4,856 nucleotides of DNA from a virus (taxonomy: Duplodnaviria; Heunggongvirae; Uroviricota; Caudoviricetes), in the IMG/VR virus record IMGVR_UViG_2778261644_000002; one strand, 5' to 3'. This document shows, piece after piece, positions 1-4,856 of the stretch (position 1 is the stretch's first letter; each line of letters opens with the position of its first letter). Made by a program: the position numbers and the translations under genes. The notes beneath the pieces were generated by a model. It searched no databases, was not told the DNA's origin, and saw only the letters and a program-made list of their open reading frames with translations.

Positions 1-3000
1 GTCATAAATCCTGACGGTAATGGTCCCTGATGGCCACCGCTCCGGTGCCCGGGAGTCCCGCGGGAAAGCCTTACCCACTGTTTTGACAATATCGCCTTCA
101 ATCTGGTTGGCTGACAGTTTCCCTTTAATCTGACAGTTCTCATTTATCGTAACGTTGTTGAGCGTCCCGGCGTTCGCATTCACACTGCCACTGATATCTG
201 CATTTTTAGCGGTCAGCTTTCCGTCCGGTGTCAGGGAAAATGCCGGTGGATTTCCACCGCTGGTAATGGTGGGAGCCGTCAGGCGTTTCAGGAACACGTC
301 GTTCATGAATATCTGATCGCCCTGACCAACAAACATCGGTTTTGTGTTGCCATTCGCAGGATTAACCATCGCAATCCTGTCCGCCGCCAGCAGCACCTGA
401 CTCTGCATGCCGTCAGGGGTGTTCTCAATACCGGCACCAATACCCGCGATATAAAGGCGTCCGTCCTGCATCTGCTGCAGCTTCACAGCCCACATGCTGT
501 TCAGGTTATTATTTGTATCAACCTGAACCTTCTGTATCTGCTGAATTGCCGCACTCTGGTCTTCCAGTTTCTTATTGACGGTCTGCGTGATTTCATTGCT
601 GACATCCGTAATGGACGTCCTGATTTCAGCCAGGTCAGGCGCAAGCTGACCGTTATCAATCTGCGTCCACAGCTCCTGAGCCAGATGGGTTTTCCCTATC
701 TCGCCTTTGAAAAAATCCAGATAGCCGGATGCATCATCGCTCGCCCGACCGACGGCCTCCACAAATGCCGATTTGCCTACGGTGTTCACACTGCGGATAT
801 AAAAGTAATAATCATGGCCCGGTTTGATATTGATACTGGCGGCTATCCAGTACAGCGCCGTACCAAGATAGCGGGCTGTGGTTTCAACCTGCCTGATATC
901 CGCAATCCGCTTTTCCGAGAACCAGAACTCAAACTGTACCGTCGGATCATAAACCGCAAGATGCGGCGTGGCGGTTATCTGAAAATAGCCCGGTGTCAGC
1001 TCAATCCGAGACGGCGCTGCCGGTGCGGCAATCCGGAACGATACCGATGCCGGATCGCCCTGCTGTCCCCATGCATTTACCGCCCGGACTGTCAGCCTGT
1101 AGTTCCCCAACGCCAGTTGTGTGAAGCGGTATGTGGTTTCCGTCGTCCGGGCCGTGCTGACCAGCCGCTCACTGCCGTCGTCCGCTGTTACGGTCAGACG
1201 GAGCAGGAAGCTCACGCCCTTCACCACCTTCGGTGTGTCCCAGCGCGCCAGCACCTGATATTCCCCGCTGTCTGCAGTGACTTCTGCGGTCAGGTGCTGC
1301 ACCGCTGGCGGCGTGACACCGTTCACCGTGCCACTCTGTTCGCCGTCAAAGTGCGCCCCGTTATCCACGATGGCCTCTTTTTCCGGCACATGCTGCACGG
1401 CGGTGATGGCATACGTACCGTCATCGTTCTCACGGATACTCACACAGCGGAACAGGCGCTGGCGCAGCGTCGGCAGCTTCAGCCCCCACACGCTGTATCC
1501 GGCAACGCCGTCAGGAACACGGCTCACTTTCACCTTAAGTCCGTCGGTGACGGACTGAACCTCCACGCTGACCGGATTACCACTTCCGTCAACCAGGCTT
1601 ATCAGCGTGGTACCGGAGGATGGCAGCGTGATTTCACGGTCGAGCGTCAGCGTCCGGGTCTGGCTGTTCACCGCCAGCACGCGACCACCGGTGCTGATAC
1701 CGGCATAGTCATCATCGCAGATTTCAATGACATCGCCCGGTACATGGCGAAGCCCTTCAGCACCCACGCTGAAATCCACGGTCTGCGTCTCCAGCAGTTC
1801 CGTTTTAATCAGCCACAGCCCGGCGCGGTGTGCCTGCCCCCGGCTGGTACAGCCAAAGGCATCCATCTTCGTGACATTACGACCGTAACGGGCAATGGCC
1901 TGCGTATCTTCAACAAGCTCTGTCGCCGTCTCCCAGCCGTTGTCCGGGTCAATCCAGTTCACCTCAACGGCATTATGGCGGTCCTTCAGGGCGCTGAAGC
2001 TGTAGCGGAACGGCGCGCCATCATCCGGCATCACCACATTACTGCGGTTATAGGTCCACACCTTATCCGACGGTCGGTCCTGCACGAACGTCAGCGTCTG
2101 CCCGTTCCATACCGGCATACAGCGCATCGCCGAGCAGAAATCACTGAGCACATCCCACGCCTTGCGCTGTGTGGTCAGGTACGCATTACAGGTGATGCGC
2201 GGCTCCGTGCCGCCAAAGCCGTCCGGCACTGACTGGTCGCAGTACTGGCCGATGACATACAGCGCCCATTTGTCCACATCCGCCGCACCAAGACGTTTCC
2301 CCATGCCGTAGCGTGGATGGGTCAGCATATCCCACAGACACCAGGCCATGTTATTGCTGTATGCTGGCTTAAACGTTCCGTCCCAGATACCGCTGTATTG
2401 CCGAGTCTGCGGGTTATAGTTCGACGGCACCTGCAGAATACGCCCGCGCAGATGATAATTACGGCTCACCTGCTGGCTGCCGAACTGCTCCGAATCCACC
2501 TGTACGCCGACCAGTGCCGTGTTCGGGTAGCACTGTTTCACATCGATGATTTCGGTGTATGACGACCAGAGCGTTTTGTTCTGCAGCTGGTCTGTGGTGC
2601 TGTCCGGCGTCATCCTGCGCATCCGGATATTGAACGGGCGCGGCGGCAGGTTATCCACCACCACCGAGGCCAGATACTGCGAGGTGGTTTTGCCCTTAAT
2701 GGTGATGTCTTTTTCCGTCACCCAGCCACCATTACGCTGTATCTGAACCAGCAGGCGGACTTCCGATGGATTCCTGTCCCCCTTTGAGGTGGTTTCCACC
2801 AGTGCCTGCACGCCGAAAGTAAAACGCAGACGGTCAATGTTTGCCGACGTGATGGTCCGGGTGATCGGCGTGTCATATTTCACTTCTGTACCGAGCACCG
2901 TCTCGGAGCCGGAGGATTCAAATCCCTCCGGCGGTGTCTGCTCCTGCTCACCGGCCCGGAACACCACCGTGACGCCGGATATATTGGTATTCCCCTCACT

Positions 3001-3162
3001 GTCCAGCACCGGCGTACTGTTCAGCAGCACGCTTTTTAATCCATCCACCGGACCTTCAACCGGCCCTTCGCTGATGGCATCGATCACACTCAGCAGCTGC
3101 GTGGACTTCAGGTTGTCCTTCGCTTCGCGCGGGGTATGCCCCTTACTGCTGCCTTTACCCAT
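1..3162 (-). CDS. J: Tail tip / host specificity protein J (central tail fibre), 3'-truncated by the window edge: codons 1-1054 present, C-terminal end of the receptor-binding region and the stop lie beyond position 1
   Basis: Minus-strand ATG at 3162 (complement of 'cat' 3160-3162) opens a frame translating [41 protein letters not shown]..., which I recognise as the lambda gpJ N-terminus. The frame stays open for 3162 nt (exactly 1054 codons) to position 1, ending ...[48 protein letters not shown] (hand translation). GGAG lies 8 nt upstream of the ATG. It follows I in the lambda gene order. The plus-strand 515-aa ORF at 685..2232 is its antisense shadow. Confidence 0.95.
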
Positions 3163-3170
3163 TCGTCATG

Positions 3171-3174
3171 CTCC
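3171..3174 (-). promoter_or_regulatory. Shine-Dalgarno-like GGAG for J, 8 nt upstream of the J start codon
   Basis: Plus-strand 'ctcc' at 3171-3174 is GGAG on the coding strand; the 8-nt spacing to the ATG at 3162 is appropriate for an RBS. Confidence 0.5.
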
Positions 3175-3184
3175 ATAAACGATA

Positions 3185-3204
3185 AAACCGCCCGGAGGCG
3201 GTTT
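3185..3204 (-). other. Perfect 8-bp inverted repeat (stem-loop) in the 60-nt I-J spacer; possible RNA structural, attenuator or processing element
   Basis: Plus strand aaaccgcc-cgga-ggcggttt (3185-3192 pairs with 3197-3204, 4-nt loop). On the sense (minus) strand it reads AAACCGCC-uccg-GGCGGUUU followed by UAUCGUUUAU, immediately ahead of the J RBS. The GC-rich core is only 5 bp and the U-run lies partly within the stem, so it is at best a weak intrinsic-terminator-like hairpin. Confidence 0.3.
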
Positions 3205-3222
3205 CACATAAAACATTTTGCA

Positions 3223-3894
3223 TCAGCGACCAATCACCACAACCTGACCACCATCCCCTTCGTCTGCCGTGCTGATCTCCTGAGAAACCACCCGTGACCC
3301 CACGCGCATTTCACCGTACAGAACAGGCAGAACATTGCCCTGGGCAACCATGTTATCCAGTGAGGAGAAATAGGTGTTCTGCTTACCGTTATCCGTTGTC
3401 TGTGTACGGGGAGTTCTGACTTTCGGTGCCAGCATCTGCGCCACACCACCAAGTACCATACTGGCACCGAGAGAAAACAGGATACCGGTCATACCACCGG
3501 CCCCAATGGCTGCCCCCCATGCTGCAATGGTGGCTCCGGCAGTAAAAAATGATCCGGCAATGGCGGCAGCCCCCAGAACAATCTGGAATACGCCCCCTGA
3601 CTTGGCCCCGGCGACTCTGGGAACAATATGAATCACAGCGCCGTCAGGCAGAGTCTCATGTAACTGCGCCGTTAACCCGGACGTGCTGACGTCCCGCCCG
3701 GCAATCCGTACCTGATACCAGCCGTCGCTCAGTTTCTGACGAAACGCCGGGAGCTGTGTGGCCAGTGCGCGGATGGCTTCAGCCCCCGTTTTCACACGAA
3801 GGTCGATGCGGCGGCCAAATCGTTGCAAATCCCCGTAAAGGCAGATGCGTGCCATGCCCGGTGACGCCAGAGGGAGTGTGTGCGTCGCTGCCAT
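3223..3894 (-). CDS. I: Tail assembly protein I (223 aa): N-terminal ubiquitin-like domain ending in Gly-Gly, then a Gly/Ala-rich hydrophobic segment
   Basis: Complete minus-strand ORF, ATG at 3894 and TGA at 3223-3225, translating MAATHTLPLASPGMARICLYGDLQRFGRRIDLRVKTGAEAIRALATQLPAF..., recognised as lambda gpI. Its start lies 103 nt inside K in a different frame, as in lambda. A purine-rich GAGAGAGG sits about 11 nt upstream of the ATG. Confidence 0.95.
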   Translation of the reverse strand: MAATHTLPLASPGMARICLYGDLQRFGRRIDLRVKTGAEAIRALATQLPAFRQKLSDGWYQVRIAGRDVSTSGLTAQLHETLPDGAVIHIVPRVAGAKSGGVFQIVLGAAAIAGSFFTAGATIAAWGAAIGAGGMTGILFSLGASMVLGGVAQMLAPKVRTPRTQTTDNGKQNTYFSSLDNMVAQGNVLPVLYGEMRVGSRVVSQEISTADEGDGGQVVVIGR

Positions 3895-4535
3895 TTGTCG
3901 GTATACCTCTCTCGTTTGCTCAGTTGTTCAGGGATATGGTGCAGCAGCTCGCCATCACCACAGTAAATGGCGGCATGATTCGGCACCGATGAACCAAAAC
4001 AGCACAGCAGCACATCGCCCGGTTGTGCTGATGACAACGGCACCTGATACAGCCCTGTGGCCTCCAGATTATCCAGATAGAGATTCTGACCGTGACGCCA
4101 CCAGTCATCCCCGTGATGAAAATCCGGCATCTCAATCCCCGCCAGATGATAAGCATCCCGGAACAGCGTGTAACAGTCCGTCACCCCGTGCTCAAAGCGC
4201 CGCCCGGTGAGATGCGGCACACAGCGGAACTTATGAATCGTCCCCCGGCAGACCAGCCACCACGGCAAATCACTCTGCACCTGCAGCCGCCGGTCGGCCT
4301 CACTCAGCCAGGGCAGACCACCGGGGTGGCTGTGGACCAGCGCCATAATCTCACCCTGCATTTCTGCACTCAGCCAGTCTTCCGGCGACATACGGAAATA
4401 CGCCTCCGGCTCACCGGAGATATTCACGCAGGGGAAATATCTTTCCCCCTCCGGCGTGCTTACCACGAAGCCGCACGACTCCGCTGGCGCACATCGCCGG
4501 GCGTGCGCCAGAATCGCTGATTCTGTCTGTGTCAT
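3792..4535 (-). CDS. K: Tail tip assembly protein K, JAB/MPN (JAMM) metalloprotease-like domain fused to an NlpC/P60 (C40) peptidase-like domain. Longest ORF is 247 aa; the classically annotated lambda K start corresponds to the internal ATG at 4391 (199 aa, 3792..4391)
   Basis: Minus-strand ORF with stop at 3792. From the internal Met the product reads MSPEDWLSAEMQGEIMALVHSHPGGLPWLSEADRRLQ..., recognised as lambda gpK. The JAMM signature H-x-H-x7-S-x2-D is present (HSHPGGLPWLSEAD), and NlpC/P60-like Cys/His residues lie in the C-terminal half (TDCYTLF, NHAAIY, LLHH). The frame stays open 48 codons further upstream to an ATG at 4535, 5 nt after the L stop. The internal ATG at 4391 is preceded by GGAGG about 11 nt upstream. 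Confidence 0.9.
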   Translation of the reverse strand: MTQTESAILAHARRCAPAESCGFVVSTPEGERYFPCVNISGEPEAYFRMSPEDWLSAEMQGEIMALVHSHPGGLPWLSEADRRLQVQSDLPWWLVCRGTIHKFRCVPHLTGRRFEHGVTDCYTLFRDAYHLAGIEMPDFHHGDDWWRHGQNLYLDNLEATGLYQVPLSSAQPGDVLLCCFGSSVPNHAAIYCGDGELLHHIPEQLSKRERYTDKWQRRTHSLWRHRAWHASAFTGICNDLAAASTFV

Positions 4536-4540
4536 GGGAT

Positions 4541-4856
4541 TTACTGCGAAAGTTTGTTAATGGAAAGGAAGCCGCCAAAGTTGCCGACGTTATTGCGAAA
4601 CTTACAGCCACTCAGGCATTTGCTGCATTTATCCTTCGTGATATCGGACGTTGGCTGGTCATATTCATCCGCGACCGCCGGACCGTGATAACCGCACTCA
4701 TCGCCGCGATAGGTCCAGGTGCAGGTGTTGGCCAGCATGATACGTCCCGGAAAAACAGCGCCATCTGTTTCCGTCGGCGTGGACAGTACAAAGGAGGCAC
4801 TCACCGCGCTCAGTTCGCTGCACTGCTCGATGCGCCAGCGGCTGATCACCTCCTGC
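4541..4856 (-). CDS. L: Tail tip protein L, 5'-truncated by the window edge: C-terminal ~104 aa present, including the Cys-rich region
   Basis: Minus-strand frame open from the right window edge to TAA at 4541-4543, ending ...CSKCLSGCKFRNNVGNFGGFLSINKLSQ, which I recognise as the lambda gpL C-terminus. It sits immediately upstream of K, as in lambda. The Met at 4849 in the ORF track is internal; the true start is outside the window. Confidence 0.9.
   Translation of the reverse strand, partial: QEVISRWRIEQCSELSAVSASFVLSTPTETDGAVFPGRIMLANTCTWTYRGDECGYHGPAVADEYDQPTSDITKDKCSKCLSGCKFRNNVGNFGGFLSINKLSQ

Follow-up and report, generated by a model that had tools for sequence, protein, structure and literature searches.

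Proteins K and I take part in lambda tail assembly, a textbook pathway. The stretch of viral DNA analyzed here (the window; 4,856 nucleotides, IMG/VR record IMGVR_UViG_2778261644_000002) encodes both proteins and raises the question of whether K processes I and, if so, at which bond. On its minus strand lie the C-terminal part of L, K, I and most of J of a lambdoid phage, in the order L-K-I-J (ORF list and Pfam; Table 1), with the start codon of K 5 nt past the stop codon of L. The DNA is approximately 98% identical to known lambdoid phages, mEp460 and 2H10 among these; the sequence is an ordinary lambdoid one, and K and I are an ordinary lambda-type tail-tip gene pair. The notion that I is ubiquitin-like (Ubl) and K a JAB peptidase is likewise already known, being a prediction nearly twenty years old: Iyer, Burroughs and Aravind hypothesized in 2006, under the names 'TAPI/TAPK', that K clips a ubiquitin-like domain off I (PMC1779556). 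Beyond that 2006 prediction, we found in the searchable literature no published biochemical test of K, or of K cleaving I.

Table 1. Coordinates of the L-K-I-J features in the window.
Feature	Position	Strand	Basis
Gene L (tail tip hub protein), C-terminal part, cut by window end; context	4541..4856	-	Pfam Phage_tail_L, E 8.9e-44
Gene K (tail tip assembly protein K), 247 aa + stop	3792..4535	-	ORF list; Pfam Prok-JAB + NLPC_P60; 98% DNA identity to annotated lambdoid phages; phrog_30
K JAB/MPN+ metalloprotease domain, aa 3-104	4224..4529	-	Pfam PF14464, E 6.6e-13
K E19	4479-4481	-	JAB/MPN+ domain
K H68-S-H70-x7-S78-x2-D81 motif	4293-4334	-	Coordinates verified
K NlpC/P60 (C40, papain-like) peptidase domain, aa 111-224	3864..4205	-	Pfam PF00877, E 1.7e-12
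K C121; H187; H199-H200	4173-4175; 3975-3977; 3936-3941	-	NlpC/P60 Cys-His-His set
K C-terminal tail, aa 225-247, HRAWHASAFTGICNDLAAASTFV	3795..3863	-	K alignment
K/I out-of-frame overlap, 103 nt	3792..3894	-	I in -1 (+2) frame relative to K
Gene I (tail tip assembly / plug protein I), 223 aa + stop	3223..3894	-	ORF list; Pfam PF06805; lambda gpI chain 8iyk_I
I N-terminal ubiquitin-like beta-grasp domain, aa 14-97	3604..3855	-	Pfam PF06805; AF2 model; fold searches
I G96-A97, family-conserved Gly-[Ala/Ser] at Ubl di-glycine position	3604..3609	-	Alignment of 63 diverse homologs; register on 1v8c
I G100-G101, start of hydrophobic helix H1	3592..3597	-	Sequence
I Gly/Ala-rich hydrophobic hairpin, aa 101-157, helices H1 + H2	3424..3594	-	Composition, hydropathy; AF2
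I C-terminal plug + beta-strand domain, aa 158-223, kept in virion tail tip	3226..3423	-	Match to solved gpI chains 8iyk_I, 9e7m_Ia
Gene J (central tail fibre / host specificity), first 1054 codons, cut by window end; context	1..3162	-	Pfam Phage-tail_3, Ig_J, FNIII-A_GpJ, Phage_Tail_Tip

An earlier sequence-only reading of this DNA had placed in K a JAMM motif (H68, H70 and D81) and an NlpC/P60 triad including C121, and both were recovered with these four residues at those positions. The Prok-JAB profile scored 49 bits against a cut-off of 25 over residues 3-104 and the NLPC_P60 profile 47.7 bits against 23 over residues 111-224, while among PDB sequences 2kks_A matched the JAB domain (E 4e-6). 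The JAMM motif is complete, comprising E19 together with H68-S-H70-PGGLPWL-S78-EA-D81. Across an alignment of 15 K sequences from 15 phages (median pairwise identity 33%), E19, H68, H70 and D81 were invariant in 15/15, as were C121, H187, H199 and H200, and position 78 was Ser in 14 and Thr in 1; these eight residues make up 8 of the 19 invariant columns among 247. Judged from its sequence, K is thus a double peptidase with both predicted active sites intact. Many database entries begin K at M49 (199 aa) rather than giving the 247 aa found here, and that start loses the first 48 residues of the JAB domain, E19 included.

The association of the two genes is retained well outside the window. Searching phage genomes by tblastn, we found an I homolog in 1,739 phage records, and 14 annotated regions were then taken as homologous loci. 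A K gene with JAB and NlpC/P60 domains lies upstream of I in 14/14 of these phage loci and in an F-pyocin locus, such that the pairing is kept in 16/16 loci examined. K is followed by I and then directly by J in the 14 phage loci, three of which have extra ORFs between K and I; at the F-pyocin locus, K and I alone were examined. Families of JAB-I and K-I fusions also occur in PHROGs. The 103-nt out-of-frame overlap, which the earlier reading had reported, was confirmed at 3792-3894. In the other loci compared (14 from phages and one from an F-pyocin), the two genes either share 0-20 nt or lie apart, except for one 92-nt overlap that stems from a longest-ORF start call in an unannotated record; across these loci, the long overlap is specific to the lambda lineage. 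Most of it is due to the lineage-specific C-terminal tail of K, which in the K alignment is present only in lambda-like, Mannheimia and Dickeya phage proteins, with a common F-x-G-I-x-N-D-like motif, and absent elsewhere. Programmed -1 frameshifting to a K-I fusion was considered, with I in the -1 frame and K-I fusions in databases, and rejected: we read these fusions as indels or assembly errors, since the junction varies among them, almost every one belongs to a cluster of one or two members, additional frame errors are present in several, and inspection of the K/I overlap by eye showed no canonical X XXY YYZ slippery heptamer.

Turning to I, the Lambda_tail_I profile (PF06805) scored 100 bits against a cut-off of 23.8 over residues 14-97; the protein corresponds to phrog_32 'tail assembly protein' (E 3.7e-83) and matched lambda gpI chain 8iyk_I over its full length (E 1.7e-140), with 9e7m_Ia also matched. 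The N-terminus had been expected to adopt a beta-grasp fold, and both the fold searches and an AF2 model built on a diverse alignment gave one (39 close homologs, at 70-99% identity, yielded a mean pLDDT of 46 and were set aside). With the gpI match, these results identify the TAPI architecture, namely an N-terminal beta-grasp, a Gly-rich hydrophobic linker and a small C-terminal domain. The best structural matches of the N-domain were the MoaD, ThiS, CysO and SAMP ubiquitin-like proteins. By sequence, its profile reached MoaD in the PDB at sub-significant E 0.83-1.2, so the fold claim rests on the structure searches. A profile-based homolog search with I returned mostly enterobacterial sequences. 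One candidate, P0288 (2,783 aa, with 23 matches to I residues 10-63), was considered as a poly-Ubl protein and rejected as a repetitive sequence with a chance first-strand resemblance and none of the family motifs.

To place the Ubl C-terminus within I, where it is internal, we aligned the MoaD-related protein 1v8c, whose ...FPPVAGG falls on G96-A97 (profile alignment, E 0.83, with the register resting on the fold match). G96-A97 therefore occupies the di-glycine position of Ubl proteins. Among 63 diverse I homologs, P92-x-x-x-G96-[A/S]97 was found in 55; taken singly, P92 was present in 63/63, G96 in 61/63 and [A/S]97 in 57/63. No E1-like adenylating enzyme (ThiF/MoeB/UBA) accompanies this domain in the window, which encodes only L, K, I and J and gave no ThiF-like Pfam match, and we know of none in lambda. 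I thus has the Ubl fold but does not belong to any conjugation or sulfur-transfer system.

Beyond the Ubl domain, the previously noted 57-residue Gly/Ala-rich hydrophobic stretch was confirmed at residues 101-157, of which 26/57 (46%) are G or A, with 16 small-xxx-small motifs; AF2 modelled helices at 100-129 and 137-155. Its suggested likeness to a membrane segment also held, as it forms helices H1 and H2, which are predicted to insert into membranes (PMC11101478). In virions, the two helices, predicted to be transmembrane, encircle the coiled coil at the C-terminus of the tape measure protein (PMC11101478, PMC10721106), and the C-terminal part of gpI forms a trimeric plug in the tip lumen (PMC12617516, PMC10721106, PMC11101478).

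Published data on mature particles bear directly on the fate of the Ubl domain. Lambda virion structures and mass spectrometry (MS) show the C-terminal part of gpI only, with the resolved portion beginning at residue 101, 134 or 135, and K was not detected (PMC11101478, PMC10721106, PMC12617516). In MS of lambda virions, gpI is represented by a single peptide (9.87% coverage), which must be the C-terminal one, 202-223, and none of the six well-behaved tryptic peptides of the N-domain was reported; this MS evidence is weak, since it consists of one peptide from a three-copy protein. For the F-pyocin of Pseudomonas aeruginosa, the N-region of the I homolog PA0640 is removed in maturation, being absent from mature particles by MS and present in stalled tips, and deletion of the K homolog PA0639 produces tip-less tubes (preprint 10.64898/2026.02.24.707460). 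The PA0639 homolog in a P. paraeruginosa genome has both active sites intact by sequence. The present analysis shows the fold, motifs, conservation and gene linkage, and published work shows that virions lack K and the N-domain and that the F-pyocin N-region is lost; the JAB domain of K as the protease, the exact bond and a chaperone role for the Ubl domain are inferred. We favor, with moderate confidence, a reading in which K and I constitute a tail-tip maturation pair and the Ubl domain is cut from an I precursor at G96-[A/S]97, most likely by the JAB domain of K. For removal of the Ubl domain, the 2006 idea that K clips I is now indirectly supported.

In this pathway, I would be made as a precursor in which a MoaD/SAMP-like N-terminal Ubl domain (aa 14-97) is joined by a short linker, basic and Gly-rich, to a functional part with two hydrophobic helices and a C-terminal beta domain. 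Probably acting as a soluble handle or an intramolecular chaperone, the Ubl domain would assist the hydrophobic part during formation of the J-I-L-K tip complex. It would then be cut off at G96-[A/S]97, most likely by the JAB (JAMM) domain of K, and the functional part would become the trimeric plug that, inside the tail-tip lumen, holds the tape measure protein by its C-terminus. K and the freed Ubl domain are proposed to leave after cleavage, which would explain why both are missing from virions.

The alternative that fares best is that host proteases remove the Ubl domain at an exposed, labile linker, with K acting elsewhere or as an assembly chaperone only. The linker of I (residues 93-99) was indeed modelled by AF2 as a lower-confidence coil, and full-length PA0640 expressed by itself in E. 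coli had its N-region removed by unknown host proteases, indicating that K may not be required; moreover, stalled F-pyocin tips from strains still carrying the K homolog kept N-region peptides, so cleavage is not an immediate consequence of the presence of K (preprint 10.64898/2026.02.24.707460). However, the JAMM residues of K do not vary among phages that infect very different hosts, the JAB domain is kept adjoining or fused to the Ubl domain (PMC1779556), and a conserved G-[A/S] at the Ubl C-terminal position suits a Ubl-specific protease rather than a non-specific host one. We therefore regard host proteolysis as an unlikely explanation and retain cleavage by K as the preferred one.

It is less probable still, and in our view quite doubtful, that the N-domain stays attached in lambda as a flexible element invisible to cryo-EM and acts in infection, as in the speculation of Ge and Wang that it is the missing peptidoglycan-cleaving enzyme. 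The structural papers call the N-domain just 'unresolved' (PMC10721106, PMC11101478). Nevertheless, this small MoaD/SAMP-like beta-grasp had no hydrolase-like matches in the fold searches, which leaves an enzymatic cell-wall role unsupported and makes the gpI N-terminus an unlikely cell-wall hydrolase. The absence of the homologous region from mature F-pyocin and of the six tryptic peptides from the lambda MS report likewise speaks against retention. In addition, three 11-kDa domains at residue ~100 in the tip lumen would be expected to crowd the tape measure protein.

As for the bond itself, the sequence-only reading had taken Gly-Gly 100-101 as the hallmark Ubl terminus and raised cleavage after G101, which would free a 101-residue Ubl with a canonical GG end. 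The GG does occur here, within ...VPRVAGAKSGG, and in most close relatives of I (PRxAGAKxGG), and G101 is fairly common among the 63 diverse homologs (48/63). In contrast, G100 is present in only 29/63, and 28/63 have no GG anywhere from G96 to G108; PA0640, the homolog with processing evidence, reads ...GSKQSG. Hence the dipeptide stands as a feature of this sequence, whereas the family-conserved di-glycine position, by the Ubl register, is G96-[A/S]97. Moreover, in closed lambda tails the resolved part of gpI reportedly begins at residue 101, which fits a cut at 96/97 and speaks against one after G101 (PMC11101478). Cleavage exactly after G101 accordingly appears very improbable, and G96/A97 is most likely the site, albeit a putative one. 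For the design of experiments, G96/A97 is a better target than GG100-101.

Peptidoglycan endopeptidase activity is typical of NlpC/P60 domains, and among PDB sequences the closest NlpC/P60 match, with a weak E of 0.064, was an endopeptidase from a mycobacterium. That K is chiefly a cell-wall hydrolase digesting peptidoglycan at entry or lysis, its link to I being incidental, is nonetheless highly improbable, as K is found in virions by neither MS nor cryo-EM (PMC12617516, PMC10721106), lambda virions carry no peptidoglycan hydrolase (PMC12617516), K starts straight with the JAB domain with no signal-peptide-like or hydrophobic leader on reading its N-terminus by eye, and F-pyocin K-homolog mutants fail at tip assembly, not killing (preprint 10.64898/2026.02.24.707460). 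Fold and triad place K in the NlpC/P60 family, but it is doubtful that its substrate is the cell wall; since virions lack K, this site more likely acts on a protein or peptide in the course of assembly than on the host cell wall. An extended proposal, in which K would be a maturation protease with two targets, both partners of the gpI/tape-measure complex, and the JAB cut at G96/A97 a checkpoint freeing the tip lumen for tape-measure docking, is a long shot.

If the preferred reading of a K-I maturation pair is true, it would represent a Ubl/JAMM processing pair that is encoded by a virus and serves as a checkpoint in assembly; such a pair would be shared by well over a thousand of the siphophages sequenced and by F-type pyocins, and would offer a simple prokaryotic model of the Ubl-deubiquitinase relationship.

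Among known systems, lambda is the closest: gpI and gpK are the same genes as those in the window, with three differences over 223 residues between our I and gpI chain 8iyk_I, and the L-K-I-J order, the 103-nt overlap and the domain architecture all agree, leaving no difference of substance. In phage T5, the plug domain of pb3 resembles the C-terminal part of gpI in position and role, in that it is a trimeric plug that seals the tip lumen and touches the C-terminus of the tape measure pb2; however, it is an insertion within the hub protein rather than the product of a separate Ubl-tagged precursor, and a K-like double peptidase is not described there (PMC10721106). The F-pyocin proteins PA0639 and PA0640 (PDB 25vf) are homologous K-like (JAB plus NlpC/P60) and I-like proteins, and the C-terminal part of the I homolog forms a tip plug around the tape measure C-terminus, as gpI does. 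Unlike lambda, the F-pyocin is a tailocin and not a phage, its K and I genes lie 54 nt apart with no overlap (P. paraeruginosa locus), and its I homolog has G-S at the Ubl C-terminal position followed by no Gly-Gly; the F-pyocin authors name no protease for the removal of the PA0640 N-region.

Examples of a Ubl protein paired with a JAMM protease are CysO-Mec+ and SAMP-HvJAMM1. MoaD/ThiS-type Ubl proteins are associated with JAB/JAMM peptidases that trim the Ubl C-terminus (PMC1779556). As in I, the last strand of the MoaD, ThiS, CysO and SAMP proteins contains Pro and is followed by a conserved pair of small residues at the C-terminal position. The I family differs from MoaD, ThiS and SAMP in that the second glycine is Ala or Ser and the Ubl forms the N-terminal portion of the precursor to a structural protein instead of being a free carrier.

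The N-terminal domain of I is a member of the ThiS/MoaD/SAMP branch of ubiquitin-like (Ubl) proteins, where Iyer, Burroughs and Aravind placed it in 2006 from sequence profiles (PMC1779556). Pfam Lambda_tail_I matched residues 14-97 at 100 bits, far over the curated cut-off, and a whole-library search returned a large family of 3,179 clusters at 50% identity. From an alignment of 55 sequences, 33-61% identical to the window protein, AlphaFold2 produced a confident model (pLDDT 93-97 over residues 11-90) with strands at 14-19, 29-33, 60-64 and 87-92 and helices at 37-47, 49-56 and 74-78; the beta-grasp fold, which the sequence-only reading had proposed as a check, was recovered. Given this modelled fold, the speculative suggestion that the N-terminus of gpI supplies the missing peptidoglycan hydrolase (PMC11101478) is unlikely to hold. 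A protein of the representative library (P0288, 2,783 aa) with 23 stretches matched to residues 10-63 was rejected as spurious: it is highly repetitive (repeats such as FGDFENLSRRMDLKVFADT), resembles only the first-strand region and lacks the family motifs. Residues 1-13 (MAATHTLPLASPG) lie ahead of the Pfam domain; distant homologs lack them and begin at the equivalent of Met14, as do many database entries (210 aa). An SD-like sequence, GAGAGAGG, lies inside K, 11 nt upstream of the I ATG, and favours Met1 as the probable start.

The partner protein K carries two peptidase domains, Prok-JAB (residues 3-104, 49 bits) and NLPC_P60 (residues 111-224, 47.7 bits), both far over the curated Pfam cut-offs. 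The JAMM motif is complete (E19, then H68-S-H70-x7-S78-x2-D81), and the NlpC/P60 set comprises C121, H187 and H199/H200; H68, H70, D81 and C121 all lie where the sequence-only reading had put them. Among 15 K proteins, 28-51% identical to that of the window (median pairwise identity 33%), 19 of 247 positions were invariant, eight of them being E19, H68, H70, D81, C121, H187, H199 and H200, and position 78 was Ser in 14 and Thr in one. This comparison shows strong selection on both active sites, which counts against K serving as a scaffold only. A role for the NlpC/P60 domain at the cell wall is doubtful, because K has no leader and is not found in virions. In many database entries, which together stand for thousands of member sequences, K begins at Met49 (199 aa, MSPEDW...) and so lacks the first 48 JAB residues, catalytic E19 among them; distant phages conserve the 247-aa form. 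Since K begins 5 nt past the L stop codon and no Shine-Dalgarno-like sequence was seen upstream of its start, K may be translationally coupled to L.

Features of the tail-tip region and their window coordinates
Feature	Coordinates	Strand	Remark
L, C-terminal 104 codons	4541-4856	minus	lambda-type tail-tip module
L C-terminus, cysteine cluster	4541-4700		
L/K junction	4536-4543		
K, 247 aa	4535..3792	minus	lambda-type tail-tip module
K codons 1-48	4392-4535		dropped by Met49 start
K/I overlap	3792-3894		103 nt, I in -1 frame relative to K
I, 223 aa	3894..3223	minus	lambda-type tail-tip module
I residues 1-13	3855-3894		
I residues 101-157	3424-3594		57-residue hydrophobic segment
I residues ~109-139	3480-3570		most variable part in close relatives
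I-J hairpin	3168-3216	minus	in 60-nt spacer (I stop 3223, J start 3162)
J, first 1054 codons	3162..1	minus	lambda-type tail-tip module

A Gly-Gly is present at I residues 100-101, where the sequence-only reading had placed the Ubl terminus and a possible cut by K; among 63 diverse homologs, the family-conserved feature is instead G96-[A/S]97. P92 was retained in all 63, G96 in 61 and [A/S]97 in 57, and the pattern P-x-x-x-G-[A/S] in 55, whereas G100 occurred in only 29 and G101 in 48; 28 of the 63 lacked any Gly-Gly in the stretch from G96 to G108, an invariant residue of helix H1. Close relatives share the motif PR-x-AGAK-x-GG. Profile comparison aligned ...IVP-R-V-A-G96-A97 with ...LFP-P-V-A-G-G of the MoaD-related 1v8c at an E value of 0.83, a match used for register only, given the agreement in fold. 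This register, together with the family conservation, places G96-A97 at the position of the Ubl C-terminal di-glycine. The solved homolog 9l9p reads ...VPIPTGSKTGG, and 25vf (F-pyocin PA0640) reads ...VPLVIGSKQSG, with no downstream Gly-Gly. Furthermore, Ge and Wang reported gpI of the closed lambda tail as resolved "from position 101 onward" (PMC11101478), which is difficult to square with a cut after G101 and fits one at 96/97 followed by three or four disordered residues. The likely processing site thus shifts from GG100-101 to G96/A97.

In three lambda structural studies, a trimeric plug within the tip lumen is formed by the C-terminal part of gpI, resolved from residue 101, 134 or 135 on; the N-domain and K were never seen, and K was also missing in virion mass spectrometry (PMC10721106, PMC11101478, PMC12617516). 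The virion table lists one gpI peptide at 9.87% coverage, a size matched only by the C-terminal tryptic peptide 202-223, and none of the N-domain's six well-behaved peptides was reported, which is weak but consistent support for a missing N-domain. The most direct evidence for processing comes from a 2026 F-pyocin preprint (10.64898/2026.02.24.707460), in which PA0640, the I homolog, had no detectable N-region in mature particles, assembly-stalled tips did contain it, and deletion of the K homolog PA0639 gave tip-less tubes. Its authors proposed a proteolytic checkpoint without naming the protease, and ubiquitin, JAB and peptidase are absent from the text. In a P. paraeruginosa locus, the PA0639 homolog keeps both motifs intact (PRECCG, HSHPDAPATPSMAD, LDCWSL, NHAGIY, LLHH), and a second F-pyocin study resolved the I homolog from residue 128 only (PMC12874032). 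A host protease may instead remove the N-region, or cleavage may await a later trigger, because in the 2026 preprint PA0640 expressed alone in E. coli lost its N-region to host proteases, and stalled tips retained N-region peptides even when the K homolog was there during their production.

Association of K with I was widespread. A tblastn search found an I homolog in 1,739 of 50,697 phage records, and in all 14 loci sampled across the ranking (phages of Mannheimia, Ralstonia, Burkholderia, Escherichia (T1-like), Klebsiella, Pseudomonas, Pectobacterium, Vibrio, Dickeya, Salmonella (SSU5) and Rhizobium) a K-like gene matching both halves of the window K lay upstream of I. Fusion families of both K-I and JAB-I type are present in PHROGs (phrog_28576, phrog_35166), in agreement with fusions noted in 2006 (PMC1779556). 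Frameshifting was rejected as the source of database K-I fusion proteins, whose junction differs each time and which nearly all form singleton or two-member clusters; indels or assembly errors are our preferred explanation. The 103-nt overlap, correctly described in the sequence-only reading, is no general feature of the pair: in the other loci sampled it spans 0-20 nt or the genes stand apart, sometimes with inserted ORFs. Lambda-type phages owe it to a 23-residue C-terminal tail of K and a 13-residue N-terminal extension of I preceding the first Ubl strand, and it would shrink to 64 nt if Met14 were the true start; Mannheimia and Dickeya phages have the K tail without overlap. K and I were non-adjacent in Mannheimia phage 587AP2 (L001), Pseudomonas phage BR141a (L009) and Vibrio phage Pel (L011), so the pair is independent of translational coupling or overlap. 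The inserts there were small ORFs, a predicted terminator or oppositely oriented genes, including an anti-repressor-like gene in Pel.

The 57-residue segment of I, delimited as in the sequence-only reading, has a combined Gly and Ala content of 46%, contains 16 small-xxx-small motifs and shows two peaks of hydropathy. Close relatives differ most in H1 and the H1-H2 loop, where indels occur and a number of sequence cassettes replace one another, and hardly at all in the Ubl domain, in helix H2 (LFSLGASMVLGGVAQMLAPK) or in the C-terminal domain. We propose that I is a precursor whose Ubl domain would hold the highly hydrophobic H1/H2 hairpin in solution, or present it to the J-L-K complex, before being cut off at the conserved G96-[A/S]97, probably by the JAB domain of K. 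K and the freed Ubl would then depart, leaving an I remnant of ~126 residues as the plug holding the tape measure C-terminus. Within it, the fold, the motifs, the gene linkage and the lack of the N-domain and K in virions are established, as is N-region loss during maturation in a homolog; which protease acts, which bond it cuts and the chaperone function are inferences. We regard this scheme as a whole as moderately likely.

The coding strand of the I-J spacer contains a strong GC-rich hairpin (AAACCGCC-UCCG-GGCGGUUU), lengthened by flanking pairs and followed by a U-rich tail, UUUUAUCGUUUAU. Its minimum free energy was -23.2 kcal/mol against -13.5 +/- 2.9 in shuffles (z -3.4). The element, which was absent from the output of a simple terminator scan, resembles an intrinsic terminator, or a hairpin stabilising the mRNA, within the late operon.

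The L C-terminus bears a cysteine cluster (…CTWTYRGDECGYHG…KCSKCLSGCKF…) consistent with the 4Fe-4S cluster that the structural papers describe in lambda gpL. Around K/I, 1.76 kb is 97-98% identical to lambdoid phages including mEp460 and 2H10, which carry the same annotation, and I differs at three positions from lambda gpI of the cryo-EM structures 8IYK, 8IYL, 8K35 and 8XCG; the window genes are therefore the well-known K and I. The Ubl/JAB interpretation, a faithful restatement of the 2006 prediction, holds in outline under the present tests and recent structures, with its site moved from GG100-101 to G96/A97. Collectively, the window sequence is ordinary, and the case is one already known in the best-studied phage.
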